Source of the DNA: Planctomycetota bacterium
GTDB lineage: Bacteria > Planctomycetota > PLA2
NCBI GenBank assembly: GCA_021776785.1
Contig: JAJFFF010000043.1
Location: 4,196 to 68,195, forward strand
DNA: 64,000 bases
Reading direction: 5' to 3'
The notes beneath the pieces are model-generated. The model worked only from the letters and a program-made list of their open reading frames with translations. It did no database searches and was not told the DNA's origin. Below are positions 1,458 through 53,799 of this stretch, in pieces; within the stretch, counting starts at the first letter, position 1; every line of letters begins with the position of its first letter. The translations under genes and the position numbers were made by a program.

Positions 1458-2429
1458 TTGCCGCTGTGGGGTATAGAATTCGCTGCCATGGGTGACCTGC
1501 AGTTCGATTTTGACGCGGCGGAGACGTGTACGCTCGAAGTCGATGACGAGCAGGCGGGCGTGCGCCTCGACCAGTTCTTGGCCGTGGCCCTCAACGACTT
1601 CAGTCGAGCAGGCGTGCAGCGTCTGATCAAACTCGGTGCCGTGATTTTGAACGGGACGGCGGCTACGCGCGCATCGGTGAAGGTGCAAGAGGGCGACCAG
1701 GTCGCGGTGACGGTCCCCGCACTCAAGGAGCCGTCGGTTACTCCGCAGTCCATCGAACTCACGGTCCTGCACGAGGACGATGATGTCTTAGTGATCGACA
1801 AGGCGCCGGGCATGGCCGTGCATCCCGGGGCCGGACGACCGGATGGAACGGTCGCGAACGCGGTTGCGGCGCGCATCGGCATCGTCGGACCGCGCGACCG
1901 ACCGGGCATCGTGCATCGGTTGGACCTCGCCACGAGCGGCGTCATGGCGATCGCCAAACACGAATCCGCGCACGCCAGCCTGTCCGCGGCCTTTAAGGAG
2001 CGGGCGGTCGTCAAGGTGTACCTGGCGATCACGCACGGTGTGCTGGACTACGACGAGTACGCGATCGACGCGCCGCTCGGACGGTCTCTGCGGGATCCGA
2101 AAAAGATGGCGGTGCGCCACGATCAAGGCCGCGCGTCGTTCACGGGAGTCGCGGTGAATGAGCGCTTCGAACGCGCCTCGTTCATTGAATGTCGTCCGCG
2201 GACGGGGCGCACGCACCAGATCCGCGTCCATTTGCTGAGTACCGGCCATCCGCTGCTCGGCGACGCGACCTACGCGCGCGGTCGCGCCAACCCGGTTTCC
2301 GTGCCGCGTTTGATGTTGCACGCGAGCAGTTTGACGTTCCCGCACCCGCGGACAAACGAGCCTGTCACCGTGGAGGCGCCGGTCCCCGCCGACATGAGCG
2401 CCGTGCTCGCGCTTTTGCGCGCGAGTTGA
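1458..2429 (+). CDS. RluA-family 23S rRNA/tRNA pseudouridine synthase (RluD-like, with S4 domain)
   Basis: Contains HRLD catalytic-Asp motif ([14 protein letters not shown]), an S4-like N-terminus (LDQFLA...[18 protein letters not shown]) and conserved C-terminal [10 protein letters not shown]. The TTG at 1458 is the longest start; the ATG at 1488 (MGDLQF) is a plausible alternative. Confidence 0.85.
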
Positions 2430-2460
2430 CGCTGGCCCGCGCCACGGCTACGGTCGGCCC

Positions 2461-4059
2461 ATGGACCGTCAAACCTGGGAGCGCGATGTCTACGGGCCCG
2501 CGCGCGCTAAGCACTCCGAACGCCGGGACTCGTTTCAAACGTCGAGCGGAATTCCGCTGGAACCCGTGTACGGCGACGGGCCGTTCCCCGGGGAGTACCC
2601 GTACGTGCGCGGCGTGCAGCCGACCATGTATCGCGGGCGCTTTTGGACGATGCGGCAGTACGCCGGATTTACGTCGGCCAAGGCGAGCAACGAACGGTAC
2701 CGCGCTCTGCTCGCGCAGGGCGCACGCGGTCTGTCGGTCGCGTTCGACTTGCCCACGCAGATCGGCTACGACTCCGATAGCCCCGAGGCGTTTGGCGAAG
2801 TCGGACGCGTCGGTGTGCCCATCAACTCGCTGCACGACATGGAAGTGTTGTTCGACCAGATCCCGCTCGACAAGGTGACCGTGTCGATGACGATCAATTC
2901 GACGGCGAGCATCTTGCTGGCGCTGCTGATCGCGGTTGCGAAACGGCGCGGGATTGACCCGTCGGCACTCGGCGGCACGATCCAAAACGACATCTTGAAG
3001 GAGTACATCGCGCGCGGGACGTATCGTTTTCCCGTCGGGCCCTCGATGCGCCTGATCACGGATACCTTTCGATACTGCGCGGACCACGTTCCGCGTTGGA
3101 ATCCGATCTCAATCAGCGGGTACCACATTCGCGAGGCCGGCGCGACGGCGGCGCAGGAGGTCGCGTTCACGCTGGCCGACGGGATCGCGTATGTCCAGGC
3201 GGCTCTCGACGCCGGTCTGGATGTGGATCGATTCGCCAGTCGGCTGTCATTTTTCTTCAACGCGCACAACAACCTGTTCGAGGAGGTCGCGAAGTTTCGC
3301 GCCGCCCGACGGATGTGGGCCAAGATCATGAAGGAGCGCTTCGGCGCCAAGAGCGAGCGCTCGTGTTGGCTTCGGTTCCACACGCAGACGGCGGGCTCGA
3401 CGCTGCAGAGCCGGCAGATTGACTGCAACGTCGTGCGTACCACGCTGCAGGCGCTGTCGGCCGTGCTCGGGGGCACGCAATCGCTGCACACCAACGGGCG
3501 CGACGAAGCGTTGGCGTTGCCGACCGAAGCGAGCGCTACGCTGGCGCTGCGGACGCAGCAGGTGATCGCGCACGAAAGCGGTGTCGCGGATGTTGTCGAT
3601 CCGCTCGGCGGCGCGCCGTTCATCGAGGCGCTCACCGACGAGGTGGAGGCGCGCGCTCAGGCATTGATTGACCGCATCGACGCCATGGGGGGGGCGGTTT
3701 CGTGCATCGCCTTCATGCAGGGCGAGATCGAGCGCAGTGCCTATCAGGCGCAAAAGCGAATCGAATCCGCCGAGGATGTGGTCGTCGGCGTGAATCGGTT
3801 TGAAGAGGGCGACGGGGCCCAACCGGAGCTCTTGGCGATCGACGACGCGGCCTACACGAGCATCTGCGTACAGCTCAAGGAGATGCGGTCGCAACGTGAC
3901 GGCGCGGCGGCCCAGCACGCCCTGGACGCGCTCACGGCCGCGTGTCGCTCGACCGACAACCTGATGCCGCCGATTCTGGCCGCGGTGGAAGCGCACGCGA
4001 CCGTCGGCGAGATCTGTGCCGCGATGGAGTCGGTGTTCGGCGTGTACCAGCCCGGATAG
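2461..4059 (+). CDS. Methylmalonyl-CoA mutase family, catalytic (N-terminal TIM-barrel) subunit without a fused B12-binding domain
   Basis: Strong MCM N-terminal motifs: [63 protein letters not shown]. The 532-aa length matches a split-type large subunit. No cobalamin-binding DxHxxG domain in this ORF or elsewhere in the window. Confidence 0.9.
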
Positions 4060-4065
4060 ACGCGG

Positions 4066-7000
4066 TCACTTCACTTCGATTTCGCGAATGAGCGGCCATT
4101 TCTGCGGATCGATTTCATGAGTATCGATGCGGACCAGCCGCGCGGACCCCAGCGGCGCCGGGTCGATTGCAGCGATCCCGTTTTTTGGTTTGCCAAACCC
4201 GACGATGACGGTGCCGTCGTCGCGGGTCTGGATGAGCGCTACCGATTCTTGGGCCTCGACTTGTGCGCGGCCCAGCGCGAGCGTGAACCGAATCGGTTGT
4301 TCGGGGCGCGTGACTTCGATATCGCGCCAGACCACAAGTTGACCGCGCTCTGCGCGCAAGAGGACGCGCCACTTCCCGGCATGGGGCGCGCGCAGACGAA
4401 ACACGCCGCTTTCGCCGAGCAACGCTTCGCTTCGCTGCGAACCCTGTACTTGAAAACGCGGTGGCATGAGCAGCGCGTTCCAGCCTTTCGCGTTGCCTCC
4501 GGTAATCGTCACCAGACCCTCGACACTCGGTGCGCGAGCATCGGCGACAAGCAGATCATGCTTCGTCGTGGATCCGGCGCGTACGGTGCATGTGTGGGGA
4601 ATCGGTTCGGCGCCTAAGCGCGAGCGTACGCGTTGGGCTCGCGGGTGAATCTCTTTGTCGGTCCGTGTCACAAGCCACGGGCCGGGCGTGAGCGCGTCAA
4701 AGCGAAATGCACCGTTGGCGTCGCTGCGCTGGGTTTGCGCGAATCCGTCCGCGCGCGAGATCGCGACGATGACCCCTGGAGCGGCTTTTCCGTCTTCGGT
4801 GCGCACGCGCCCCGCGATCGACCCGCCGCGTGTGATTTGCAGCGGCACGTCGTCGCCGACCGTTGCGTCGAACGCGCGTATGTCGGAACTCGCCGGAGCC
4901 AGTCCATCGGCTTCCGCGCGTACGACGAACCGTCCCTGGCCGCGCAGGGTGAGACGGTACGCTCCGTTCTTGTTGGTGCGCGTTTGGGCTGTCGGGCTTC
5001 GTTGGGATCGCACCGGGAATCTGTTCACCGTGACTATGCGGTCGGTCGGCGTCGCCTTGTGAAGCGTAACGCGCGCGTCGGCGACCGGTTTCCCGTTCGC
5101 CGTGACCGTACCGCGTATGCCTGGAAGTTCTTGAAGTTGCGCTTGCGCGTCGGCAGGGGCGGTTTCGGACGCGTAAGGACCGAGTGTTGCCAGCGCATGG
5201 TGATCCGCGTCGACGATGACCATGAACGCTCCCGCGGGCAACGGGACCTTGGCAGCGCCGTCAGCGCCGGCCTCGACATCGTCGATCGGGAGATCGAACT
5301 CGGCGTCGGGGCGCCGCATACGTACGCGGAACGTGCTCACCGCGGCGCCCTTCGTACCGGTCGCGCGAACGGTCATGTACCGAATTTTGGAAAGGCGAAG
5401 CGTGATCGTCGCTCCCGTTGCGCGGACATCAGTCCGGCGCGCCGCACCCCAGCGGCCCTCGGGATCGCGCACCTCGATGATGTAGACCGCGCCTTCCTCG
5501 GCCTCGATCTGAAACGTCCCATCGTCTTCGACGGTGGTTCCTCCGCCGCCTTCTGTGTTGTCGCCGACAAATTCGTAGGACAACTCGACGCCGCTCGCAG
5601 GTTTGCCTTCCGGGGTCAGAGCAACGCCTTGAATCGTCGCGTTCGCCGGTTTGGCTTCGAGCCTAACGATCACCCCGGCGGTCTCGCGGCCCGCGTGAAT
5701 TTCGGCCGGTGCATGCGTGCCGTTCCAGTAGTCGGCGGCTTCTACCCAGACGCGCTGCGAACCGATCGGGATTCCGGTGATCCGGAAGCGGCCATCGGCG
5801 TCCGTTGCGGTAAACGGTTGGGCCGCCACAGCCGCAAGCGGGGCATGGCGCAGGTGGTTGATATCGGCGTCGGTAAACGGGCGTTGGCTCCATCCGACCT
5901 GCGCGTGCGCAACGGGCTTACCTTCTTGATCGACGACGCGACCGACGAGCGAGCCGCCCGGTTCGAGAGCAATGTCGCCCAGGGCGGTTCGGGAGTCGCG
6001 CTTCGCCTGCGTGCGCATGGTGCGTGTGGCATACCCGTCGGCGCGAAACGAAAGATCGAGGACGGTCATGTTGTCTTTGATCTTGAGTGCGGCAACGAGC
6101 CGACCGTCAGCGCCGGCCCTCAACTCGATGATTTCGCCCGCATGGCGGATGTGGACGTCGCATCCGCTCACCGCGTTCTTGTTGGTGTCGACGACGCGAA
6201 AAGAAACGGACGAGGTCGGCGCGGCGATCGGGTTCGCGCCCGGCGCGGCCGGTGTGGAGCGCCGCGCTCGCGACGGCTCGATGCTCTCGCCGTCCTTCGA
6301 TTTAGGCACGGCATGTTTTGCGTCCGTGTCATTCGATCTTGCGTCCGCGGCGCGGGTGCGACGCGTCTCCGTGCGCGTCGGCGTGTCACTCCACGGCGCG
6401 CGGTCCGATACGTGCCATCCGAGCACGAGAAGCGCGACCACCGCGCCTCCTACGAGAAATTTTGTAGTTGTCGACAAGGCCACGGCTCCTCCAAGAGAGA
6501 GTGTTGTTCCCATGGCATCGAGGGTCGGTACGGTGAGGGCCGCGAGCGCGTTGTGCCAGCGCTTGCGATCGCCGGCGTGGCGGGCGTCCAGCGCTTGACG
6601 GAGAAGCGTCAGTCCACGTTGGATTCGCCAACGCACGGTTCCCGGCGGCGTACTTTGTTTCCGCGCGATGTCCGCAGCAGTCCAATCGCGGTAGTAGCGA
6701 AGGAGCAACGTGGTGCGGAACGGCTCTTCCAAGTTCATCACCAGCTCGGTGAGCATTTGGTGCGACTCGAGTTCGGCGAGGATCCTGTCCGGCGTGTCGG
6801 CTTGCCGATCCGGTTGGGCGACGGCGTGTTCGCGTCGACTCCGGCGGCGATTGGTTCGCGCGCGCATGCGCGCCTTGTTGCCGAGCACACGCGCAAGCCA
6901 CGGTCGCAGCGGACGGTCGGCGCGCGGGGGCTTTTCCAGGGCGGCGAGCCACGTTTCCTGTACGACGTCATCGGCCTCGGCGCGATCCCGAACCAGTCGG

Positions 7001-7077
7001 CGCGCGAGCGCGCGTGCCCATGAAGCGTGCTTGAGCAGCTCCTCGGGTCCGATCAGGGGTTCGTCGCCTCGATGCAT
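4066..7077 (-). CDS. ECF (sigma-70 group 4) sigma factor fused through a single TM helix to a large extracytoplasmic domain built of carboxypeptidase-regulatory-like beta-sandwich repeats
   Basis: Start reassigned to the ATG at 7077 (MHRGDEPLIGPEELLKHASWARALA). The ORF-track start at 7824 would overlap the epimerase gene on the other strand and its first 249 codons are R-rich noise. Sigma r2 (DDVVQETWLAALEK) and r4 (LLLRYYRDWTAADIARKQSTPPGTVRWRIQRGL) motifs, then a hydrophobic segment FLVGGAVVALLVLGW, then about 750 aa with repeated DADGRFRITGIPIG / NGAYRLTLRGQGRF / NGAFRFDALTPGPW motifs. Confidence 0.8.
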   Translation of the reverse strand: MHRGDEPLIGPEELLKHASWARALARRLVRDRAEADDVVQETWLAALEKPPRADRPLRPWLARVLGNKARMRARTNRRRSRREHAVAQPDRQADTPDRILAELESHQMLTELVMNLEEPFRTTLLLRYYRDWTAADIARKQSTPPGTVRWRIQRGLTLLRQALDARHAGDRKRWHNALAALTVPTLDAMGTTLSLGGAVALSTTTKFLVGGAVVALLVLGWHVSDRAPWSDTPTRTETRRTRAADARSNDTDAKHAVPKSKDGESIEPSRARRSTPAAPGANPIAAPTSSVSFRVVDTNKNAVSGCDVHIRHAGEIIELRAGADGRLVAALKIKDNMTVLDLSFRADGYATRTMRTQAKRDSRTALGDIALEPGGSLVGRVVDQEGKPVAHAQVGWSQRPFTDADINHLRHAPLAAVAAQPFTATDADGRFRITGIPIGSQRVWVEAADYWNGTHAPAEIHAGRETAGVIVRLEAKPANATIQGVALTPEGKPASGVELSYEFVGDNTEGGGGTTVEDDGTFQIEAEEGAVYIIEVRDPEGRWGAARRTDVRATGATITLRLSKIRYMTVRATGTKGAAVSTFRVRMRRPDAEFDLPIDDVEAGADGAAKVPLPAGAFMVIVDADHHALATLGPYASETAPADAQAQLQELPGIRGTVTANGKPVADARVTLHKATPTDRIVTVNRFPVRSQRSPTAQTRTNKNGAYRLTLRGQGRFVVRAEADGLAPASSDIRAFDATVGDDVPLQITRGGSIAGRVRTEDGKAAPGVIVAISRADGFAQTQRSDANGAFRFDALTPGPWLVTRTDKEIHPRAQRVRSRLGAEPIPHTCTVRAGSTTKHDLLVADARAPSVEGLVTITGGNAKGWNALLMPPRFQVQGSQRSEALLGESGVFRLRAPHAGKWRVLLRAERGQLVVWRDIEVTRPEQPIRFTLALGRAQVEAQESVALIQTRDDGTVIVGFGKPKNGIAAIDPAPLGSARLVRIDTHEIDPQKWPLIREIEVK

Positions 7078-7230
7078 AGAAGGTACTTGCCGCGCTTGGT
7101 CAGAGTGTTGGCGGTATTTTTTGATTCGTCGCCTGAAGCGTACGAGAACACCGTCCCGCGCGCTTAAATCCGGCCGCCAGGCGTCGAATGGGCCCTTCGC
7201 GGCATTCGTTTTTTCATCCCTCCCGGGGAT

Positions 7231-7668
7231 GTGAATAATGCGCCTGTGAAAAACATCAACCATGTGGGCGTCGCGGTCGCCGATCTTGAGGCCGCGCGCG
7301 CGATCTGGGACGAGCTGCTCGGGCAGACGCCCGACGTCGAGCATGTCGCCACGCAGCGCGTTTTTGCCGCGATGTATCCGTGCGGGATCGAGTTGATCGC
7401 GCCGGAAACTGACGACAGTCCGATTTCGAAGTTTTTGGCCAAGCGTGGGAGCGGCATCCACCACGTCACGATCGAAGTCGATGACATTGATGCGCAACTC
7501 GCGCGTTTGGCGAATCGCGATGTGCGCCTGATCAACAAGTCGGCCGTTCCCGGCGTTGGAGGCAGTCGCGTTGCGTTCCTTCACCCTGCCGCGGCCGGCG
7601 GCGTTTTGGTGGAACTCAAAGAGACCGCCAAGCAAGACAAGCACGGGGAGTCCGGCAGCGATGAATAA
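7231..7668 (+). CDS. mce: Methylmalonyl-CoA epimerase (glyoxalase/VOC family)
   Basis: 145 aa. VOC-fold motifs [14 protein letters not shown] and [14 protein letters not shown]. Its stop TAA overlaps the next gene's ATG (ATGAATAA at 7661-7668). Sits in the propionyl-CoA pathway cluster. Confidence 0.8.
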
Positions 7669-9190
7669 CCGAGAAGAGTTGCACCGTCGGCGCGAGGCTT
7701 CGCTGCTGGGCGGCGGGATGAAAGCGATTGAGAAACAGCACGCCAAGGGCAAGCTGACCGCGCGTGAGCGCATCGATTTGTTGCTCGACCCCGGGACGTT
7801 CATCGAGATCGATCCGTTCGTCACTCATCGCTGCACCGACTTCGGGATGGCTGCGAAAAAGATTCCCGGCGACGGCGTGATTACCGGGCACGGGCTTGTG
7901 GAAGGCCGCGCCCTCTTTGTGTTTTCGCAAGACTTCACCGTGTTCGGTGGATCGCTCAGCGGCGCGTATGCCCAAAAGATCTGCAAGATCATGGACCTGG
8001 CGATGAAGGCGGGCGTGCCCGTGGTTGGGTTGAACGACTCCGGTGGTGCGCGCATCCAGGAGGGCGTCGAGTCGCTTGGCGGGTACGCCGACATCTTTTT
8101 GCGCAACACACTGGCGTCCGGCGTCGTGCCGCAGATCTCCGCGATATTGGGGCCGTGCGCCGGGGGCGCCGTCTACTCGCCCGCGATTACGGACTTCGTT
8201 TGCATGGTCGAGAACACGAGCTACATGTTCGTTACCGGGCCCAACGTCGTCAAAACCGTCACGCACGAGGAAGTTTCGTTTGAGGACCTTGGTGGTGCGG
8301 CGACGCATGCCGGCAAGTCCGGCGTCGCGCATCTCACCGCTCCCGACGACGCCGCGTGCCTCGCGCAGGTCCGGCGGCTCCTTAGCTACATGCCGCTCAA
8401 CAACCGTGAGGATCCGCCGACGGTTGCCTGCGACGACGATCCCAACCGCATGGACGAGGCACTTGACACCATCGTCCCGGCCGATCCCGAAAAGCCTTAC
8501 GACATCAAAGACGTCGTCTCCCGTGTTGTGGACAAGGAGTCGTTTTTTGAAGTGATGCCCGAGTACGCCGGCAACATCGTGGTTGGCTTTGCTCGTCTCG
8601 GCGGGCGCGCGATCGGCGTGGTCGCAAACCAGCCCGCGTACCTTGCTGGCGTTCTCGACATCGACGCCAGCCTCAAGGGCGCGCGTTTCGTTCGCTTCTG
8701 CGACTGCTTCAACATTCCGCTCGTCACGTTTGAGGACGTTCCCGGTTTCTTGCCCGGCACGAATCAGGAGTGGGGCGGCATCATCAAACACGGCGCGAAA
8801 CTTCTCTACGCTTATTGCGAAGCCACCGTGCCGAAACTCACCGTCATCACGCGCAAAGCGTACGGCGGCGCCTACGACGTCATGAGCTCCAAGCACATTC
8901 GCGGCGACTTCAACTTTGCTTGGCCCAGCGCGGAGATCGCCGTTATGGGCGCCAAAGGCGCTGCCGAGATCATCTTCAAACGCGACATCCACTCGCCCGA
9001 AGACGAAGCGCGCTACACCGAAGAGTACAAACAGAAGTTCGCGAACCCGTTTATCGCTGCTGAGCTCGGCTACATCGACGACATCTTCGAGCCGAGGTTC
9101 ACCCGTCCGCGCCTCATCTCCGCCCTTTCGATCATGGCCACCAAAGTCGACCGAAACCCACCCAAAAAACACGGCAACATCCCCCTATAA
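7661..9190 (+). CDS. pccB: Propionyl-CoA carboxylase beta chain / methylmalonyl-CoA carboxyltransferase (acyl-CoA carboxylase CT subunit)
   Basis: Start taken at ATG 7661 ([19 protein letters not shown]). Classic carboxyltransferase motifs: [49 protein letters not shown]. The ORF-track start at 7556 would overlap mce. Confidence 0.9.
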
Positions 9191-9195
9191 AAAAA

Positions 9196-9226
9196 CCCCA
9201 ATGCGGTACCGGGTTGGATTTTTTCG
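9196..9226 (+). terminator. Terminator-like hairpin plus T-run (left arm of a perfect 31-bp inverted repeat pair), immediately downstream of the pccB stop
   Basis: Sequence ccccaatgcggtaccgggttggattttttcg: imperfect stem ccaa..cggtaccg..ttgg around the palindromic core CGGTACCG, followed by TTTTTT. Begins 6 nt after the pccB TAA. Confidence 0.5.
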
Positions 9227-9440
9227 TCCATAAAGCATTGTTTATTAGGGGGTTACAGCGACGAGGTGCGGCAATTTTGTCGCACTTTGGACGCCTCGCG
9301 AGGCGAAGTGACAGGGCGCTGTCGTCTAGAACCGAAGCGTGGGGCTTTTCTCGGCCTCGCGGCGTGGCACAGGCGCCTAAATTGCGTCACCAATGCCGCA
9401 TGTTGACGTCATAACATCTTATGGAATAACGCTTTAGAAC

Positions 9441-9471
9441 CGAAAAAATCCAACCCGGTACCGCATTGGGG
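9441..9471 (-). terminator. Terminator-like hairpin plus T-run on the minus strand (right arm, exact reverse complement of 9196-9226), downstream of the pdxH stop
   Basis: cgaaaaaatccaacccggtaccgcattgggg is the exact reverse complement of 9196-9226. Read on the minus strand it gives the same hairpin followed by TTTTTT, 20 nt after the pdxH stop. Confidence 0.5.
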
Positions 9472-9490
9472 AGGTGCCGCAATGCGGGGG

Positions 9491-10129
9491 TTAGGGGGCT
9501 AGGCGTTCGATTTGCCAGGTTTTGGTTTTTTTGTATTTCAGCCTGTCGTGTAGGCGGCTCTCTCGGCCCTGCCAGAACTCGATCGTCGTGGCGACCAGTT
9601 TGTAGCCGCCCCAGTGCGATGGGCGAGGGATGGGTTGGCCGTCGAGGCGAGCCGTGAGGTCGGCGACGCGGGTTTCGAGTTCGTCGCGGCTGGCAATCAC
9701 TTCGCTTTGGGCGGACGCGGTCGCGGCGATTTGACTGCCGCGCGGACGGCGCTGGAAGTACGCGTCGGAGCGCGCCGCGTCAATGGCGTGAACGGGGCCC
9801 CGGATGCGGACCTGGCGCTCAAACCGATCCCAAAAAAACAACATCGTCGCGGCGTTATTGTGAGCGAGCTGCTGACCCTTGGCGCTGTTGTAGTTCGTAT
9901 AAAAAACGAAGCCGTCGTCGTCGACGCCGCGACACAAGACAACGCGCGCATCCGGGGCGCCGTGCTCGTCCACCGTGGCCAGCGTAGCCGCGTCAGGAAT
10001 CGGCATGTGCGGCGCCGACTCGTCAAACCACTTGCGGAACTGAGCGATCGGATCGGGATCAAGCTCATCGAGTGTCAGCGTGCCCCACCGATAGTCTCCG
10101 TGCGGGTTGTCAGCGTCGCGATTGACCAT
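9491..10129 (-). CDS. pdxH: Pyridoxamine 5'-phosphate oxidase
   Basis: 212 aa with PNPOx-like fold motifs (VVLCRGVDDDGFVFYTNYNSAKGQQLAHNNAATMLFFW) and the C-terminal WGGYKLVATTIEFWQGRESRLHDRLKY signature. Confidence 0.85.
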   Translation of the reverse strand: MVNRDADNPHGDYRWGTLTLDELDPDPIAQFRKWFDESAPHMPIPDAATLATVDEHGAPDARVVLCRGVDDDGFVFYTNYNSAKGQQLAHNNAATMLFFWDRFERQVRIRGPVHAIDAARSDAYFQRRPRGSQIAATASAQSEVIASRDELETRVADLTARLDGQPIPRPSHWGGYKLVATTIEFWQGRESRLHDRLKYKKTKTWQIERLAP

Positions 10130-10375
10130 GCGTCAAGCGTACGCGGGGCGCGGCGCGACCTCCAGCCCGGGCCGCTCCGAAAGAGAGCCGGACGCCCCGG
10201 CGACCGCGCGCGGCGCCACGGGAGGAACCGAACGCCTCGCCGGCAAGCGATATCCGACGGAAAAAGCGTGAGGCCAACGACTTACGGCGGCGACCGTGAG
10301 CTTATTCACGCGCGGCGGGCGCAGGCCGGATAGTTGTGCCGTGGCGATTCGGGTGTGGTTTGCTAACTTCCCGCG

Positions 10376-11890
10376 GTGCCGATTCGAAAAGTCTGTGTCG
10401 CGAATCGCGGCGAAATCGCGGTCCGAGTGATCCGGACCCTGCGCGAGATGGGGATTCGGTCCGTCGCCGTTTTTTCCGACGCCGATCGGCGCGAACTGCA
10501 TGTGCGCGCCGCCGACGAAGCGTATCGAATCGGACCGGCCGCGCCCGGTGAATCGTATCTGCGCGGTGACGTGATCATCGCGACCGCGGTGGCAGCGGGC
10601 TGCGACGCCGTCCACCCGGGGTACGGATTCTTGAGCGAGAACGCGGCGTTCGCCGGCGCCGTCGAAGAGGCGGGCCTCGCGTTCATTGGTCCGACCGCCG
10701 CGACGATTGCGCAGGCGGGCGACAAGATCCAAGCGCGCGTCGTGATGAAAGCGGCGGGCGTGCCGGTGATCCCCGGCAGCGATTCGCCCGAGCCCGACGT
10801 CGCGTCCGCCAAAACAATCGCCGACGCGATCGGGTACCCGGTCGCGCTGAAAGCCGTCGGCGGCGGCGGCGGCAAAGGCATTCGCATCGTGCACGAAGCC
10901 GCGGAGCTGAAGTCGGCGTTCACGCGCGCGTCGTCCGAAGCGGAGACCGCGTTTGGAAACGGTGCGGTGTACGTCGAAAAGTTCCTCGTGCGTCCGCGCC
11001 ATATCGAAATCCAAGTGCTGAGCGATACGCACGGCCATCACTTTCATTTCGGTGAGCGTGAGTGCAGCATTCAACGCCGCCATCAGAAGCTCTTAGAGGA
11101 AGCGCCGTCGCCGACCGTTGACGCAACGCTTCGTGCTGCGATGGGTGCCGCCGCCGTGAAAGCCGCGCGCGCCGTGAACTACCGCGGCGCAGGAACCGTG
11201 GAGTTCTTGCTCGACCAAAGCGGGGAGTTTTACTTCCTCGAAATGAACACCCGCATTCAAGTGGAGCACCCGGTAACCGAGCTTTGCTACGGCATCGACC
11301 TCGTGCGCCAACAGGTGCGCGTCGCGGAAGGGCGCGAGCTCAAGTTTGTGCAAGATGACCTCCAACCCGTCGGACACGCGATCGAAGCGCGGCTCACGGC
11401 GGAAGATCCGGGCGGCGGATTTCTTCCGCAGACCGGCACGGTGCGCGCTGTGCGCATGCCGGAAGGGCCCGGCGTTCGGATCGACTCGAACCTGTACCCC
11501 GGGCAAGAGATCACGCTGTTTTACGACCCGATGATCGGTAAGGTCATCGTGCACGGACGCGACCGCGAGCACGCCATCGCCCGCCTCGAACGCGCGCTGA
11601 CTGAGATGCGTTTGGTCGGAATCATGACCTGCGCCCCGCTCCTGCGCGCCGTGTTGAAAGACGACGCTTACCGGCGCGGCGACGTCGACACCGGATACTT
11701 GGAACGCTTCGTCGAAGAGGTCGATTGGCAAGCGCTGCCCGAAGTGAACGATCTCCCGGCCGAACTCCCGGCCGTGCTGACGGCCGTGCTCTACGCGCAC
11801 CAACAAAAGGGCGCCAGCAAGGCGGTGGTCGCGGATCGCGCCGCGCGCAGCGAGTGGCTGACGGCCGCCCGCGCGGAGATGATGCGATGA
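10376..11890 (+). CDS. accC: Biotin carboxylase subunit of acetyl/propionyl-CoA carboxylase
   Basis: N-terminal KVCVANRGEIAVRVIRT, ATP-grasp GGGGKGIRIV and EMNTRIQVEHPVTE motifs. 504 aa. Its stop overlaps the BCCP start (ATGA at 11887-11890). Confidence 0.9.
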   Translation: MPIRKVCVANRGEIAVRVIRTLREMGIRSVAVFSDADRRELHVRAADEAYRIGPAAPGESYLRGDVIIATAVAAGCDAVHPGYGFLSENAAFAGAVEEAGLAFIGPTAATIAQAGDKIQARVVMKAAGVPVIPGSDSPEPDVASAKTIADAIGYPVALKAVGGGGGKGIRIVHEAAELKSAFTRASSEAETAFGNGAVYVEKFLVRPRHIEIQVLSDTHGHHFHFGERECSIQRRHQKLLEEAPSPTVDATLRAAMGAAAVKAARAVNYRGAGTVEFLLDQSGEFYFLEMNTRIQVEHPVTELCYGIDLVRQQVRVAEGRELKFVQDDLQPVGHAIEARLTAEDPGGGFLPQTGTVRAVRMPEGPGVRIDSNLYPGQEITLFYDPMIGKVIVHGRDREHAIARLERALTEMRLVGIMTCAPLLRAVLKDDAYRRGDVDTGYLERFVEEVDWQALPEVNDLPAELPAVLTAVLYAHQQKGASKAVVADRAARSEWLTAARAEMMR

Positions 11891-12408
11891 AGTATTACGC
11901 GAAAGTCGGCGCGCGCGAGTTTGAATGCACGATGTCTGAGGATGACGGAGCGTTGTTTGTCGAGGTGGACCAAACGCGCTACCGCGTCGATCTCGCCCAC
12001 ATCGAAGCGTCCGCGTCGTACACGCTGCTCGTGGACGGACGCTCGTACGAGTTTGCGTTGCACGAAGATGAAGACGGGATCGAACTCTCGGGCGGCGCTG
12101 GGTTGTTTCGCGTGTGCGTCGAGGACGCGCGCACCCACGCGGCGCGCGCGATGGTCAGCGCCGCGGGAGGGCCGGCGGGGCCGCGCCTCGTCAAAGCCGC
12201 GATGCCCGGAATCGTTCGTGAATTGCTCGTCGAGGACGGCGCGGTCGTAACGAAGGGCCAACCGCTTCTGATTCTGGAAGCGATGAAAATGCAGAACGAA
12301 ATTCGCGCGGATGGCCCGGGCACGGTCACCCGGGTGCACGTCAAGGCGGGCGCCACGGTGGTCAAGGGCGAAAAGCTCCTCGAGCTTGAATCGCCGCCGT
12401 CGCCGTAG
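11887..12408 (+). CDS. Biotin carboxyl carrier protein (biotin/lipoyl attachment domain)
   Basis: Start at ATG 11887 (MKYYAK), overlapping the accC stop. C-terminal biotinyl domain with the EAMKM biotinylation motif (ILEAMKMQNEIRA). The ORF-track start at 11725 lies inside accC in another frame. Confidence 0.8.
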   Translation: MKYYAKVGAREFECTMSEDDGALFVEVDQTRYRVDLAHIEASASYTLLVDGRSYEFALHEDEDGIELSGGAGLFRVCVEDARTHAARAMVSAAGGPAGPRLVKAAMPGIVRELLVEDGAVVTKGQPLLILEAMKMQNEIRADGPGTVTRVHVKAGATVVKGEKLLELESPPSP

Positions 12409-12498
12409 CGCACCGGGTACGCCGCACCCACGTTCGCCCGGGCTTGCAGGCGCCCACCGAATCTGACACGTACGGGCGGATCCTCGTACTCTATAGAT

Positions 12499-15009
12499 GT
12501 GCCGCGCGCTTTTTGGGTTGTTGTGATCGTTTTGGCCGCCGTCGGGGCTGCGGTGTTGACGCGATGGGGCCCGGCGCAGCAGAGCGACCCGAGTTATTTT
12601 CAGGTGCCGCGCGAGTCGCGGGCTTATGTCGGTTCGGTGTTTCGCGCGGGCGTGGCCGCGCCGGGGATTTCCGTTCACCTCCTCGAAAACGTGATCGACG
12701 GGGCGCGCTTTTCGACGACGACCGACGCGTCGGGACGGTTTCAGTTGGAGTGGCGGCCGACGCGGACACACCTGCGCCAAAAGTTGGTGCTCTTAGCGGA
12801 GCTTCCCGACGTGCCGAAGCCTGCGGCCACCGGTCCGAGCACGGGCGTCGTGCAAAAGGCGCGCGCCGGCGAGAACCGCATCGATCTCGCGCCTGCGGTT
12901 TCGTGGTCCGGCCGAACGTCCGGAGGCAGTTCGGTGGGCGTGGTGTGGGCCGGCACGCGTGGCAGCGGCGCCGTCACCGAGGGCGCGGGGCACCTTCCGC
13001 GAAGCGCGCCCGCGGTTGTCCTCGGATTGGCGGACGGATGTGCGCCGCGTTGGCAGACCATGCGCGCGCACGCGGACGAAACAGAATTCGTGCTTCGTTT
13101 ACGCGCGGGCGTCGATGTGTCCATCACGGCGCGGGATCCGTTTGGGAAACCGATCGTCGGCGCGGTCGCGCGACTCGCGGGCACGACCGACATCGCCGCC
13201 GCGCTTCCGCAGTTTCAGACCGACGAAGGTGGTGTCGCGGTCTTGAAGCATCAGTCCGACGGCGACTACATCTCGGTTCGGATGGAAGCGGAAGGATATC
13301 TCCCGGTCCGCGCTGGGGCGTGGCCGGGCCTGGACAACGAAGTCATCTTGTGGCCCGCGCGCACTGTGGAAGTGACGGTGTGGGACGCGTGGAATCAACG
13401 CGGCATCGACAACGCGGGCTTCGACGTCGAACTCTCCGAGGAGCGGAAAGGTCGTTGGCTAGGTCGGAAACTGGGAAGCACGTCGCGACCGATTCTCATG
13501 GCGCCCGGCAAAACGGTGGGGACGTTTCGCCTGCTGTTGCCGCAGTGCGCGTTGGAACTGACGGCGAACGCGACGGGATACTCCACGGAAACGGCGTCGA
13601 TCGGCGCGAACGACGCCCAGGCGCGCATCCGTCTCACGCCGCCGCGACGTCGACACCGCGCTGCGCACTTGGTCCTCATCGCGCCCGATCAAGTCGGCGA
13701 TCTACCGCTCGTCTTGACCGCGGACGACGGGGAATGGGGGCGGCGCGCGCGTTTGAAGGGCGGTCGCGCACGTATCCTCGTCAAGCCGAACACGAAACTG
13801 AAGTTCGCGTCGACACGCGCGGACGGCGGCCAGTGGATCGCACAAACGTCGGTCGAGCCGGTCGCTCCCGGCAAAGAACGCGAAGTGCAAGTCGCGCTCT
13901 TGCCGGCGATTGCGTTGACCGTCCGCACCAATCCGCCCGTCACGGGCACGGTGTATCTAAGCGACGCCGCCTATGAGGACACGTCCAACGCCGAGAGTCG
14001 TCCGCTGATCGATGGGCGCGCGACGTTCGCTGCGCGCCCGCTGCGCGTCATGCGCGTGCGAGTTGTGCCGGACGGAAACTACTTCGAAGAACGTGCCGAA
14101 TTCGTCACCGCCGATACTGATGAGGAGCGCGGGATCGATCTGATCTCCGCCGCCGGGTTCGAGACAACGGTCCGCGAGTTTGAATCGGGCTTACCGGTTT
14201 CGTTTGCGCGCGTTCGTGTCTGGGAGCCGACGGCAAACGGGCGCCTCGAGCTGCGCTTGCCGCCGCGCGTGTCGTTTGCGGACGCAAACGGCGTCGTCCG
14301 CGTCGTCGGACTGAGGCGCGGCGAGATGGCGTATGAGATCGATGCGCCGTATCTAACCGTGCATCGCGGCGGTGTGGTTCGGCTCGACGAAGGCGTCGTC
14401 AAGAAACTGCCGGGCGTGACGTTGCCGCCGCAGTCCCGTTGGTCGGGCATGGTCGTCGACGAGCTTGGCCACCGACAAGTCGGAAAGAAACTCGCCGTCA
14501 TGCGACCCGAGGTTTATCGCCTGAAGTTCGCCAACGGCGGCGAACGTCGTTTGTTTAACCTGACGTCGATCGCGTTGCCGACGGCGTGTGCCGATCGTGA
14601 CGGAAACTTCTCCGTACCCGACCCGTGGGTGCCCGACACCGATATCGCGGCGCTTAAGGTGGGGCGCGAGAGCCTGCTGGTGGTTCTGTCGGAGGGCAGT
14701 TCGAAGTTTGCGCATACTGTGATCACCGCGCGCAACCTCGCCGAAAACGACGGCAAGGCTGCGATCGGTGAGGGCGGGCGCGTTCAGATCTTTCTCAATG
14801 GCCGGGTGAACGGTGTCTATCTGCTTTTGCCGGGCGGTGTCAACGCGGTGCTGTTGCGCGGCGACCCGTCGATGACCGTGCGCCCGCTGCCGGTGCACCT
14901 GCCGGGGGGAACGCACACGTTGCACGTGCAAATGCGGGACGGGCGCCAGGCGACGACGACGCTCAATTGTCCGCCCGGCGAAATCGTCGATTGGCACGCC
15001 TTTCCCTAG
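12499..15009 (+). CDS. Membrane-anchored hypothetical protein with carboxypeptidase-regulatory-like beta-sandwich repeats
   Basis: GTG start. N-terminal signal anchor FWVVVIVLAAVGAAVL. Repeats with TDASGRFQLEW and CADRDGNFSVPDPW motifs. 836 aa. Confidence 0.6.
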   Translation: MPRAFWVVVIVLAAVGAAVLTRWGPAQQSDPSYFQVPRESRAYVGSVFRAGVAAPGISVHLLENVIDGARFSTTTDASGRFQLEWRPTRTHLRQKLVLLAELPDVPKPAATGPSTGVVQKARAGENRIDLAPAVSWSGRTSGGSSVGVVWAGTRGSGAVTEGAGHLPRSAPAVVLGLADGCAPRWQTMRAHADETEFVLRLRAGVDVSITARDPFGKPIVGAVARLAGTTDIAAALPQFQTDEGGVAVLKHQSDGDYISVRMEAEGYLPVRAGAWPGLDNEVILWPARTVEVTVWDAWNQRGIDNAGFDVELSEERKGRWLGRKLGSTSRPILMAPGKTVGTFRLLLPQCALELTANATGYSTETASIGANDAQARIRLTPPRRRHRAAHLVLIAPDQVGDLPLVLTADDGEWGRRARLKGGRARILVKPNTKLKFASTRADGGQWIAQTSVEPVAPGKEREVQVALLPAIALTVRTNPPVTGTVYLSDAAYEDTSNAESRPLIDGRATFAARPLRVMRVRVVPDGNYFEERAEFVTADTDEERGIDLISAAGFETTVREFESGLPVSFARVRVWEPTANGRLELRLPPRVSFADANGVVRVVGLRRGEMAYEIDAPYLTVHRGGVVRLDEGVVKKLPGVTLPPQSRWSGMVVDELGHRQVGKKLAVMRPEVYRLKFANGGERRLFNLTSIALPTACADRDGNFSVPDPWVPDTDIAALKVGRESLLVVLSEGSSKFAHTVITARNLAENDGKAAIGEGGRVQIFLNGRVNGVYLLLPGGVNAVLLRGDPSMTVRPLPVHLPGGTHTLHVQMRDGRQATTTLNCPPGEIVDWHAFP

Positions 15010-22922: not shown

Positions 22923-22963
22923 GCCCAAAAAAAGAGCGAGCCGCCGGTGGGGATCCGGCGGCT
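22923..22963 (-). terminator. Rho-independent terminator candidate on the minus strand (11-bp perfect stem, 7-nt loop, T7 run)
   Basis: Plus strand reads cccaaaaaaagagcgagccgccggtggggatccggcggctcg. On the minus strand the stem cgagccgccgg/ccggcggctcg is followed by tctttttttggg. It lies upstream of the SnoaL-like gene start within a 368-bp lower-GC intergenic region. Confidence 0.45.
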
Positions 22964-23263
22964 CGCGAAGGCATCGTGAGTTGGAATGTGTTGGGCCCGG
23001 CTGGGAGGACCGGTGGGATGCCCAACGATTTAGCAAGCGGACAAGCGAGTCTAGATATTCCGCAAGAAGGAATACTGCACGTCGCTAGGTATGCAAACGC
23101 GAGTTCCGTTATTTGTTACGAGTTTTTCGCGCCGCGCCCGCCCCTGGCCAGTTAGCATCGACGGAAGTTCCTCGCCGAACAGGGTTTGAGTCGTGTTGTC
23201 TCAGGATTAGACAGTTGTCTCGCATCGCCCATCGGTTCGGCAAGGCGCAGGGTCCCAGGGGAG

Positions 23264-53052: not shown

Positions 53053-53799
53053 ATGGCGAGCGCTGGAGCAATGTCCAGCGCTCGCGCGCGTCGTGCGGCC
53101 CAGAACGAAGTCGTCATGCTGAAGGAGCTCTTGGAGCACCAGCAACGCGTGTCGCAGGCCGGCCTGATTACGGCGGCGCTCGCGCATGACGTGGACAACC
53201 ACGCACAGGTGCTGACGGGCGCGACGTTTCTCGCGTTGCGCAGCGACGATCCCGCCGAGTGGCGGCGCGCCTTGGAGATCGTGCAGGAGCGCTGTTTCGC
53301 GATGACCGAAGTCACCCGCTCGTTTCTGGGCTTCTTGCGGCGCAAGGACGTGCATGGGGTAGGAGCTTTCGGGCTCATGCGCGCCGTCAAGGAAGCGCGG
53401 CAACTCGTCGAGCTCCTTGCGAAACAGGAAGACGTGACGCTGAGCGTCGTGGTCGATGACGACGCGAACCTGATGGGCGAGCACCGGGTGCTGGTCCAGG
53501 CATTGGTGAACTTGTTGTCGAATGCTGTGAAGGCTGTCGCCGGTCGAAACGAAGGAGCGGTCGTCTTGGAGGTCACACTCCTGGAAACGGAGGCGCGCGT
53601 TGTTGTGTCGGACAACGGGCCCGGCATTCCCGACGAGATCCGGTCGCGCATCTTCCGGCCGATGGCGACAACCGATGGACACGGCATTGGACTGTTCATC
53701 GTCCGCCAAAACATCCGGCGCCTCGGCGGCTCGATCCGTGTCGAGAGCTCCGATGCTGGAACCACGTTCGAGTTGCGCCTGCCGTTGCTCGACCACTAG
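53053..53799 (+). CDS. Soluble sensor histidine kinase (HisKA + HATPase_c, no TM segments)
   Basis: H-box ITAALAHDVDNHAQVL, N-box VNLLSNAVKA and G-boxes DNGPGIPDEI / GIGLFIV. Start chosen at ATG 53053 (MASAGAM). The ORF-track start at 52960 would overlap the previous gene by 70 nt. No response-regulator gene adjacent. Confidence 0.75.
   Translation: MASAGAMSSARARRAAQNEVVMLKELLEHQQRVSQAGLITAALAHDVDNHAQVLTGATFLALRSDDPAEWRRALEIVQERCFAMTEVTRSFLGFLRRKDVHGVGAFGLMRAVKEARQLVELLAKQEDVTLSVVVDDDANLMGEHRVLVQALVNLLSNAVKAVAGRNEGAVVLEVTLLETEARVVVSDNGPGIPDEIRSRIFRPMATTDGHGIGLFIVRQNIRRLGGSIRVESSDAGTTFELRLPLLDH

Follow-up and report, generated by a model that had tools for sequence, protein, structure and literature searches.

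In the 64-kb window (the whole stretch of 64,000 nucleotides of planctomycete DNA analysed here), two genes converge on an intergenic region. On its left, pccB (7661..9190, + strand, stop codon at 9188-9190) encodes a 509-aa acyl-CoA carboxylase beta subunit with a carboxyltransferase domain (PF01039, E 1.6e-196); on its right, pdxH (9491..10129, - strand, stop codon at 9491-9493) encodes a 212-aa pyridoxamine 5'-phosphate oxidase with the domains PF01243 and PF10590. These Pfam domains confirm the gene calls made for both flanks, pccB and pdxH, in an earlier note on this DNA. The best matches of PccB were from Planctomycetota, and the nearest pdxH was just 60% identical. The biotin carboxylase gene accC (10376..11890, + strand), which lies directly behind pccB in relatives, is separated from it here by the reversed pdxH and by a palindrome at 9196-9471.

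A 276-bp imperfect palindrome

The earlier note had described exact 31-bp inverted repeats in this region, and we reproduced them: the left arm (9196..9226, + strand, facing pccB; CCCCAATGCGGTACCGGGTTGGATTTTTTCG) is the perfect reverse complement of the right arm (9441..9471, - strand, facing pdxH). Dinucleotide shuffling of the 64-kb window did not yield a single match (0/100 shuffles). The extension to about 41 bp with 4 mismatches, also claimed before, is correct as well, as arm bases 32-35 are mispaired and bases 36-41 are paired. What had been overlooked is that the in-register complementarity continues further inward without indels, giving arms of 101 nt (9196-9296 and 9371-9471) that are 74% complementary. 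In the inner 70 nt, the left inner arm (9227..9296) pairs in register with the right inner arm (9371..9440) at 44/70 positions, i.e., 63%, against 25% expected (binomial p = 2.4e-11), and if a 9-nt indel is allowed, the pairing is prolonged to about 9305/9353. The fall in arm identity is abrupt, from 31/31 to about 60% immediately past base 31. In-register palindromy is absent from the centre of the foldback (9297..9370), which holds a small hairpin, GACAG-GGCG-CTGTC (9310-9323), and part of a 14-bp palindrome, CGCCTCGCGAGGCG, which had been reported before and which we located at 9292-9305.

The 101-nt in-register arms and the pairing of 44/70 inner positions show that the entire 276-bp unit is a single imperfect palindrome (foldback), which is real, statistically unambiguous, and bigger than the earlier note stated. 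When folded as RNA, the + strand of the unit forms one long hairpin of -151.4 kcal/mol (z = -11.0), and the - strand folds to -134.2 kcal/mol (z = -9.8).

An assembly artefact is an unlikely source of this structure. In run SRR15505517, two Logan contigs, assembled independently, match the flanks on the pccB and pdxH sides with 100% identity; they end 28 nt inside the left arm and 30 nt inside the right arm, respectively. The Logan graph is built with k=31, and a contig break is expected where such a graph meets a 31-bp inverted repeat. Both outer junctions are therefore present in separate contigs, and the inner arms prolong the palindrome imperfectly, unlike a collapsed hairpin.

A 13-nt near-repeat, GAGGTGC(G/C)GCAAT, joins positions 9263-9275 within the unit to positions 9471-9483 across its right boundary. 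It may be a trace of the construction of the unit.

Possible termination signals in the arms and the content of the core

Both arms have the make-up that had been attributed to them, a CGGTACCG core followed by T6, on the + strand in the left arm and on the - strand in the right arm. In the left arm, the imperfect hairpin CCAATGCG-GTAC-CGGGTTGG occupies 9198-9217 and is followed by A and by T6 at 9219-9224; as RNA, this is an 8-pair stem with one G.G mismatch, one U.G pair, and a GUAC loop, then A and U6. The right arm presents the same hairpin and U6 to pdxH. Immediately outside the left arm, an A7 run can be read from the sequence (9189..9195; U7 on the - strand).

This pair of arms had been proposed as a matched bidirectional terminator. 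The position and the orientation of the arms and the T6 runs near both stop codons agree with the proposal: the left-arm hairpin with T6 begins 7 nt past the pccB stop codon on the + strand, its right-arm equivalent begins 21 nt past the pdxH stop codon on the - strand, and behind both genes a stem-loop followed by a U-run, the form of an intrinsic terminator, thus lies past the stop codon on the coding strand. Runs of A6 or T6 are scarce in the window (41 in 64 kb of 64% GC DNA). However, the hairpin is weak. The stem-loop alone, with its one mismatch and one wobble, gives -7.7 kcal/mol; in a 45-nt context the arm gives -9.6 kcal/mol, and the z values against shuffled sequences are -0.36 and +0.09 for the two arms. 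Folding energy had been named beforehand as a test that could speak against the arms as terminators, and it did so, since at z = -0.36 the arm folds no better than shuffled sequence. This poor folding energy weakens the terminator claim without refuting it. To our knowledge, termination signals in planctomycetes are poorly characterised. The strongest terminators in the window have folding energies of -24 to -27 kcal/mol, and other small candidates have -9.3 and -9.4 kcal/mol. Clear terminators with a hairpin and T-run are found elsewhere in the window at 22936-22966, 53056-53085, and 34835-52, and in two blocks of 20 kb of the window we counted 35 and 38 sites of this kind, where 23.4 and 20.6, respectively, were expected. 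Owing to the mismatch in its stem, the arm hairpin escaped our pattern scan for terminators, which flagged just one site here, on the - strand at 9213-9197, with GTTTTTTTAT behind it.

The two strands differ in what lies behind the first hairpin. On the - strand, the A7 run at 9189-9195 supplies U7 directly behind the left-arm hairpin and also behind the 31-bp closing stem of the whole foldback. From the order of these elements, the U7 behind the full foldback is predicted to be a second, much stronger stop for read-through from pdxH. The + strand has no such backup for the left arm, because the right arm precedes AGGTG, without a U-run. On the pdxH side, an alternative hairpin (9461..9487, - strand, -19.7 kcal/mol) can form by pairing of CCGCATTG (9461-9468) with CAATGCGG (9480-9487); in the pdxH 3' RNA it stops 3 nt short of the U6 run. 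The latter segment, just beyond the right arm, duplicates the outer arm motif and competes with the arm's own hairpin in the same RNA.

In having a hairpin followed by a U-run close behind each stop codon of a convergent pair, the unit is like known intrinsic and bidirectional terminators, and the left arm, with an A-run before it and a T-run after it, is like a classic bidirectional terminator. The known cases, however, usually consist of one shared hairpin, whereas the unit has two identical copies 245 bp apart on a long palindrome, and its hairpins are weak (-7.7 kcal/mol).

The core between the 31-bp repeats (9227-9440, 214 nt) is AT-richer than the window (GC 0.537 vs 0.638) and has no credible ORF, as had been noted. 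Its ORFs are at most 66 aa long, have no Pfam match, and are arginine-rich, with a low GC3 of 0.55-0.64 vs 0.76-0.79 in pccB, pdxH, and accC. A concatenated six-frame translation of the unit found no homologue among 5.8 billion protein clusters. On the strength of GC3, composition, and the lack of any match in Pfam or in the six-frame search, we rejected a micro-protein.

The idea that the core encodes a small RNA with insulating terminators had also been put forward, and it found no support. The whole 64-kb window gave no Rfam match at the gathering thresholds, the best sub-threshold match in 9100-9560 had E = 1.3, and a 6S-like or other known RNA was rejected, as no Rfam match was obtained. 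No sigma-70-like promoter passed our scan of the core. Moreover, the arms would stop transcripts that enter the core, not those that leave it, with the exception of leftward transcripts at the left arm. In favour of an RNA, the core alone folds better than its shuffles (-88.1 kcal/mol, z = -4.5), a weak outward-facing motif (TTGACG-16-AATAAC) is present at 9404-9431, and the left arm, with its hairpin and U7, could stop a leftward transcript. Yet the fold excess is simply the palindromy of the core, and the in-register pairs (14 G.U vs 9 A.C) show no clear strand preference and are uninformative about strand-specific selection on an RNA. With no Rfam match at E < 1, no promoter passing the scan, and ORFs of low GC3 that are arginine-rich and lack homologues, we consider it very improbable that the core encodes a small or structured RNA or a micro-protein.

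The junction in relatives and its possible history

In two relatives (L013 and L014; PccB 86-87% identical), the epimerase gene (mce), pccB, accC, and accB lie in this order on one strand, and the gap between pccB and accC is 43-155 nt. Two others (L016 and L017) have other inserts behind pccB. In the nearest relative, PccB is 90% and accC 79% identical, and the accC leader matches that of the window across a 22-nt stretch. Among the loci compared, pdxH is divergent from accC in the window and in this nearest relative (L008/L009) alone; there, pdxH is followed by a gene for a 122-aa protein, an OEP gene, and others. On a further contig (L012), pccB is followed by convergent genes including one for an AcrB-type transporter. 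Provided that the L008/L009 and L012 contigs come from the same genome, the nearest relative carries an efflux block at the position of the unit. From this comparison of gene orders, the colinear order in L013/L014 and the confinement of the pdxH arrangement to the window and L008/L009 indicate that the convergence of pccB and pdxH is a derived arrangement, specific to this lineage, at a site prone to rearrangement.

The 276-bp unit was absent from all six junctions of pccB and pdxH that we retrieved from relatives. When the unit was compared with these junctions by blastn, nothing was matched past the coding end of pccB, and the homology halts at the pccB stop codon. The possibility that the unit is a remnant of genes of the relative was rejected, as tblastn searches with the 122-aa, OEP, 493-aa, 140-aa, 65-aa, 112-aa, and AcrB-type proteins of L009/L012 gave no match in or near the unit. 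A parent transposon in the relative was also rejected, as no inverted repeats were found at the ends of the gene block.

The methylmalonyl/propionyl-CoA cluster around the junction (mutase, epimerase, pccB, accC, accB, and a large CarboxypepD_reg protein; window 2398-15009) is kept in the planctomycete MAGs L013, L014, L016, L017, L012, and L008. The insert at the pccB-accC junction differs in nearly every lineage: none, an ARPP-1 gene, a 58-aa membrane ORF with a convergent gene, the efflux block, or the reversed pdxH. Elsewhere in the cluster, a 1252-aa ORF (window 4066-7824, - strand) has regions 2 and 4 of an ECF-type sigma-70 factor (residues about 265-410) fused to a long array, at the C-terminus, of beta-sandwich domains (CarboxypepD_reg, DUF4198, and Big_1-like). 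This ORF sits on the opposite strand between the genes for methylmalonyl-CoA mutase and epimerase-pccB, which in L014, L016, and L017 are adjacent or have just nadA between them.

Taking the arms and the gene order together, our preferred reading, which we hold tentatively and with a probability of roughly 45%, is that the unit, situated where the 3' ends of pccB and pdxH meet, is a lone 276-bp foldback specific to this lineage, with identical 31-bp ends that act as inward-facing intrinsic terminators. Transcription of pccB would meet the left-arm hairpin and U6 7 nt past the stop codon, and transcription of pdxH would meet the right-arm hairpin and U6 21 nt past the stop codon, where the hairpin may be enlarged to -19.7 kcal/mol by way of the CAATGCGG copy. 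Read-through from pdxH across the unit would produce the full foldback, in which the 31-bp perfect closing stem is followed by U7. The unit would thus insulate two colliding transcription units, a collision that probably arose when pdxH landed reversed within a formerly co-transcribed mce-pccB-accC-accB operon. The foldback itself may have originated by a local inverted duplication or by the insertion of a foldback element, and its outer 31 bp may have been kept or made identical by gene conversion or owe their identity to a recent origin, while the inner arms drifted to 63%.

The unit may instead have no present function and be an inert scar (for example, a foldback from break repair), left behind when a rearrangement or deletion brought the 3' ends of pccB and pdxH together. 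Lineage-specific changes are concentrated at the pccB-accC junction, which has different inserts in L016, L017, and L012 and pdxH in the window; an efflux-gene block stands in the unit's place in the nearest relative; and the arm hairpins are weak. Against this, with 37% divergence between the inner arms, an outer identity of 31/31 would have a probability of about 0.63^31 if neutral, and the placement and orientation of two T6 runs rightly for both genes would have to be a coincidence. We consider such a scar improbable.

The identity of the outer arms is also more than our preferred reading can draw from termination as its sole cause, since it spans the loop, the G.G mismatch, and the bases past the T-run, beside inner arms that are 63% complementary. 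Termination alone does not explain it. The explanations that remain are a short gene-conversion tract bounded by the end of the outer homology, a recent insertion of an element with ends that are conserved for a protein, and recombination between the repeats. The last of these recalls an inverton, in which the 214-bp core would be flipped by recombination between the 31-bp repeats, keeping them identical. Invertons likewise have perfect inverted repeats of tens of bp that bracket a segment of hundreds of bp, as the 31-bp repeats do here, and recombination inside the repeats would account for their having stayed perfect while the interior diverged. However, the window encodes no recombinase or invertase among the approximately 46 proteins scanned, the core has no promoter-like site, its quasi-palindromic interior would change little on flipping, and the unit lies between two 3' ends, with no obvious target for a switch. 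An inverton is, in our judgement, a very remote prospect.

Copy number and likeness to mobile elements

The earlier note had also compared the unit with a miniature inverted-repeat transposable element (MITE). The size of 276 bp, within the range of about 50-500 bp, the terminal inverted repeats (TIRs) at both ends, and the lack of a credible ORF stand in favour of this comparison, but a target-site duplication (TSD) is absent, and no second copy or related transposase was found where we searched. No direct repeat of at least 2 bp is present at any TIR boundary (the left flank ends in TATAAAAAAA and the right flank starts with AGGTGCCGCA), and palindromic target duplications (TA, TTAA) are likewise absent from the tips of the inverted repeats. 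No transposase, recombinase, or RAYT (Y1_Tnp) was found among the approximately 46 window proteins scanned.

Our searches for copies covered the 64-kb window, the related loci, the GTDB representatives, metagenome and viral contigs, plasmids, and phages, while most of the source genome lies outside them. The window and 105 kb of related loci contained no second copy of the arm (at most 3-4 mismatches) or of the unit; in the window, there is one doublet and no singlet (at most 4 mismatches), and no third copy of the arm, as a singlet, was found near pdxH or accC. The GTDB representative genomes gave no match to the arm pattern or to the pattern of positions conserved between the inner arms. No copy was found in viral contigs by an exact-pattern scan, nor in plasmids and phages by BLAST. 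An exact-pattern scan of JGI/ENA metagenome contigs gave no copy of the unit, and its sole match was one unrelated locus. A high-copy family would yield several copies in 64 kb; a low-copy population may exist.

The sole metagenome match is a hairpin, CCCCAAGGCGGTACCGGTTTGGATTTTCGG, located about 20 nt behind a tRNA-Leu(taa) gene in marine contigs (L003:84-108, L004:2402-2426, L005:3219-3243 on the - strand, L006:24-48, and L007:2768-2792 on the - strand). The search pattern fixed 21 positions; further features in common with the arm are the CCCC prefix, the G.G mismatch, which has the same place in the stem, a wobble pair that is flipped, and CGG behind the T-run. The GTAC loop is the same. 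This look-alike could be due to chance, as a very large collection may plausibly contain about one random match to such a pattern, or could be a sign of a wider family of hairpins. In L005, the hairpin divides a side of about 60% GC from a block of 34-42% GC (L005:1-3000). L004 departs from the other marine contigs right behind GGAGTAATTTGCAG, which looks like an island junction beside a tRNA gene.

Two groups of elements resemble the unit. REPINs have conserved hairpin ends, a less conserved spacer, and a hairpin that comprises the whole unit (Bertels & Rainey; PMC3337134). REPs carry a GTAG or CGTC tetranucleotide at one end, and dimers of REPs with structured spacers are also described (PMC3733652). 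In the unit, each arm holds a 20-nt imperfect palindrome, the two being inverted to each other, the spacer pairs at 63%, and the doublet folds to -151 kcal/mol. The unit is thus like REPINs and REP doublets in its two inverted imperfect palindromes, highly conserved relative to a hairpin-forming spacer, in the lack of a target duplication, and in its extragenic position between convergent genes. However, its spacer of 214 bp is twice the usual maximum (20-110 bp), and no tag is common to both arms: there is no GTAG, CGTC occurs behind the T-run in the left arm only (9225-9228), and the right arm has CGGT. REPs have tens to hundreds of copies per genome, whereas there is one doublet in 64 kb, and no RAYT was found among the window proteins. 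The architecture of the unit is closest to that of a REPIN or REP doublet; we propose that it works like the terminator ends of such an element and do not class it as a member.

Bacterial MITEs such as the Correia elements, ERIC, and SPRITE form long hairpins and may serve as terminators or RNase III substrates (reviewed in PMC10969869). The unit is like these hairpin MITEs in size class, TIRs, lack of coding capacity, whole-element hairpin, and terminator-like ends; unlike them, it has no TSD, and no other copy or parent IS was found where we searched. It has no sequence in common with Correia, ERIC, or SPRITE elements. The insertion site of Correia elements is TA, and ERIC has a length of about 127 bp and many copies.

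Two further classes were rejected. The attC site of integrons consists of RYYYAAC and GTTRRRY in that order over 57-141 bp and adjoins intI or cassettes; in the unit, GTTGGAT (9212) comes before ATCCAAC (9449), which is the reversed order, 276 bp is too long, and no integrase is present in the window. Tn3-type TIMEs have 5'-GGGG ends and a 5-bp TSD, whereas the ends of the unit are 5'-CCCC, without a TSD.

These comparisons bear on a second reading, in which the unit would be one copy of a non-autonomous foldback element (a MITE or REPIN-like doublet), mobilised by a transposase encoded elsewhere in the genome, and any terminator activity would be a by-product. This reading concerns origin and is compatible with terminator function. 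It would account for perfect 31-bp TIRs with a sharp drop to about 60% identity just inside them, for a non-coding unit of 276 bp that is AT-richer than the genome, and for the absence of the unit from all six pccB and pdxH junctions of relatives. Movement of the IS200/IS605 type (RAYT) is not expected to duplicate the target, and the missing target duplication agrees with this. The conserved hairpin ends, less conserved spacer, and whole-unit hairpin are the REPIN architecture (PMC3337134), MITEs with 1-22 copies per genome are on record (PMC10969869), and the hairpin behind the tRNA-Leu gene in unrelated marine contigs is very similar (same G.G mismatch, GTAC loop, and flipped wobble). On the other hand, no second copy was found in the window, the 105 kb of related loci, GTDB representatives, metagenome and viral contigs, plasmids, or phages, and the six-frame search of 5.8 billion protein clusters gave no homologue. 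A TSD of any length is missing despite the perfect TIRs, the arms have no GTAG or CGTC tag in common, the approximately 46 window proteins include no transposase, RAYT, or recombinase, and REPINs are typically about 90-150 bp with tens to hundreds of copies. We therefore regard a mobile origin of this kind as possible, although rather unlikely.

A more speculative proposal, which we think quite improbable, is that the unit is the first representative seen of a family of REPIN-like foldbacks that occurs in few copies in Planctomycetota. The hairpin at the ends of the unit, CCCCAAKGCGGTACCGGKTTGG with a T-run and the conserved G.G mismatch, would be a module recognised by a protein and would also occur as a singlet behind the marine tRNA-Leu gene; the family would have spread without target duplication and would have been domesticated as terminators or insulators at convergent junctions.

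If the arms do terminate transcription, the locus would be an example of how a gene that landed reversed in an operon is insulated, by a mirrored pair of terminators on one palindrome. If the unit is one of several copies, it would represent a family of REPIN- or MITE-like repeats, of which there is hardly any description from this deep, uncultured lineage of planctomycetes. Neither case involves a new principle: other phyla are well known to have palindromic elements with terminator-like ends between genes, and we consider the unit a real but fairly ordinary feature.

Two other hairpins in the window were observed in the course of this analysis. At 22932-23030 (- strand), a hairpin with the form of a very strong terminator (12 pairs, of which 11 are G-C; -26.9 kcal/mol; then T7) marks the end of an intergenic stretch of about 100-200 nt that has no ORF and lies upstream of a small gene on the minus strand. 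Rfam gave a weak, sub-threshold match to the sRNA family ar14 there (24.5 bits vs a gathering threshold of 58.8, E = 0.025), and the stretch is a candidate for an unannotated small RNA. At 53056-53085 (- strand), another very strong terminator-like hairpin (12 pairs, -24.2 kcal/mol, then T8), with no Rfam match, lies between plus-strand genes for a subtilase and a histidine-kinase-like ATPase. The hairpins at 53056-53085 and 22936-22966 have the same GCGAGC...GCTCGC stem ends.
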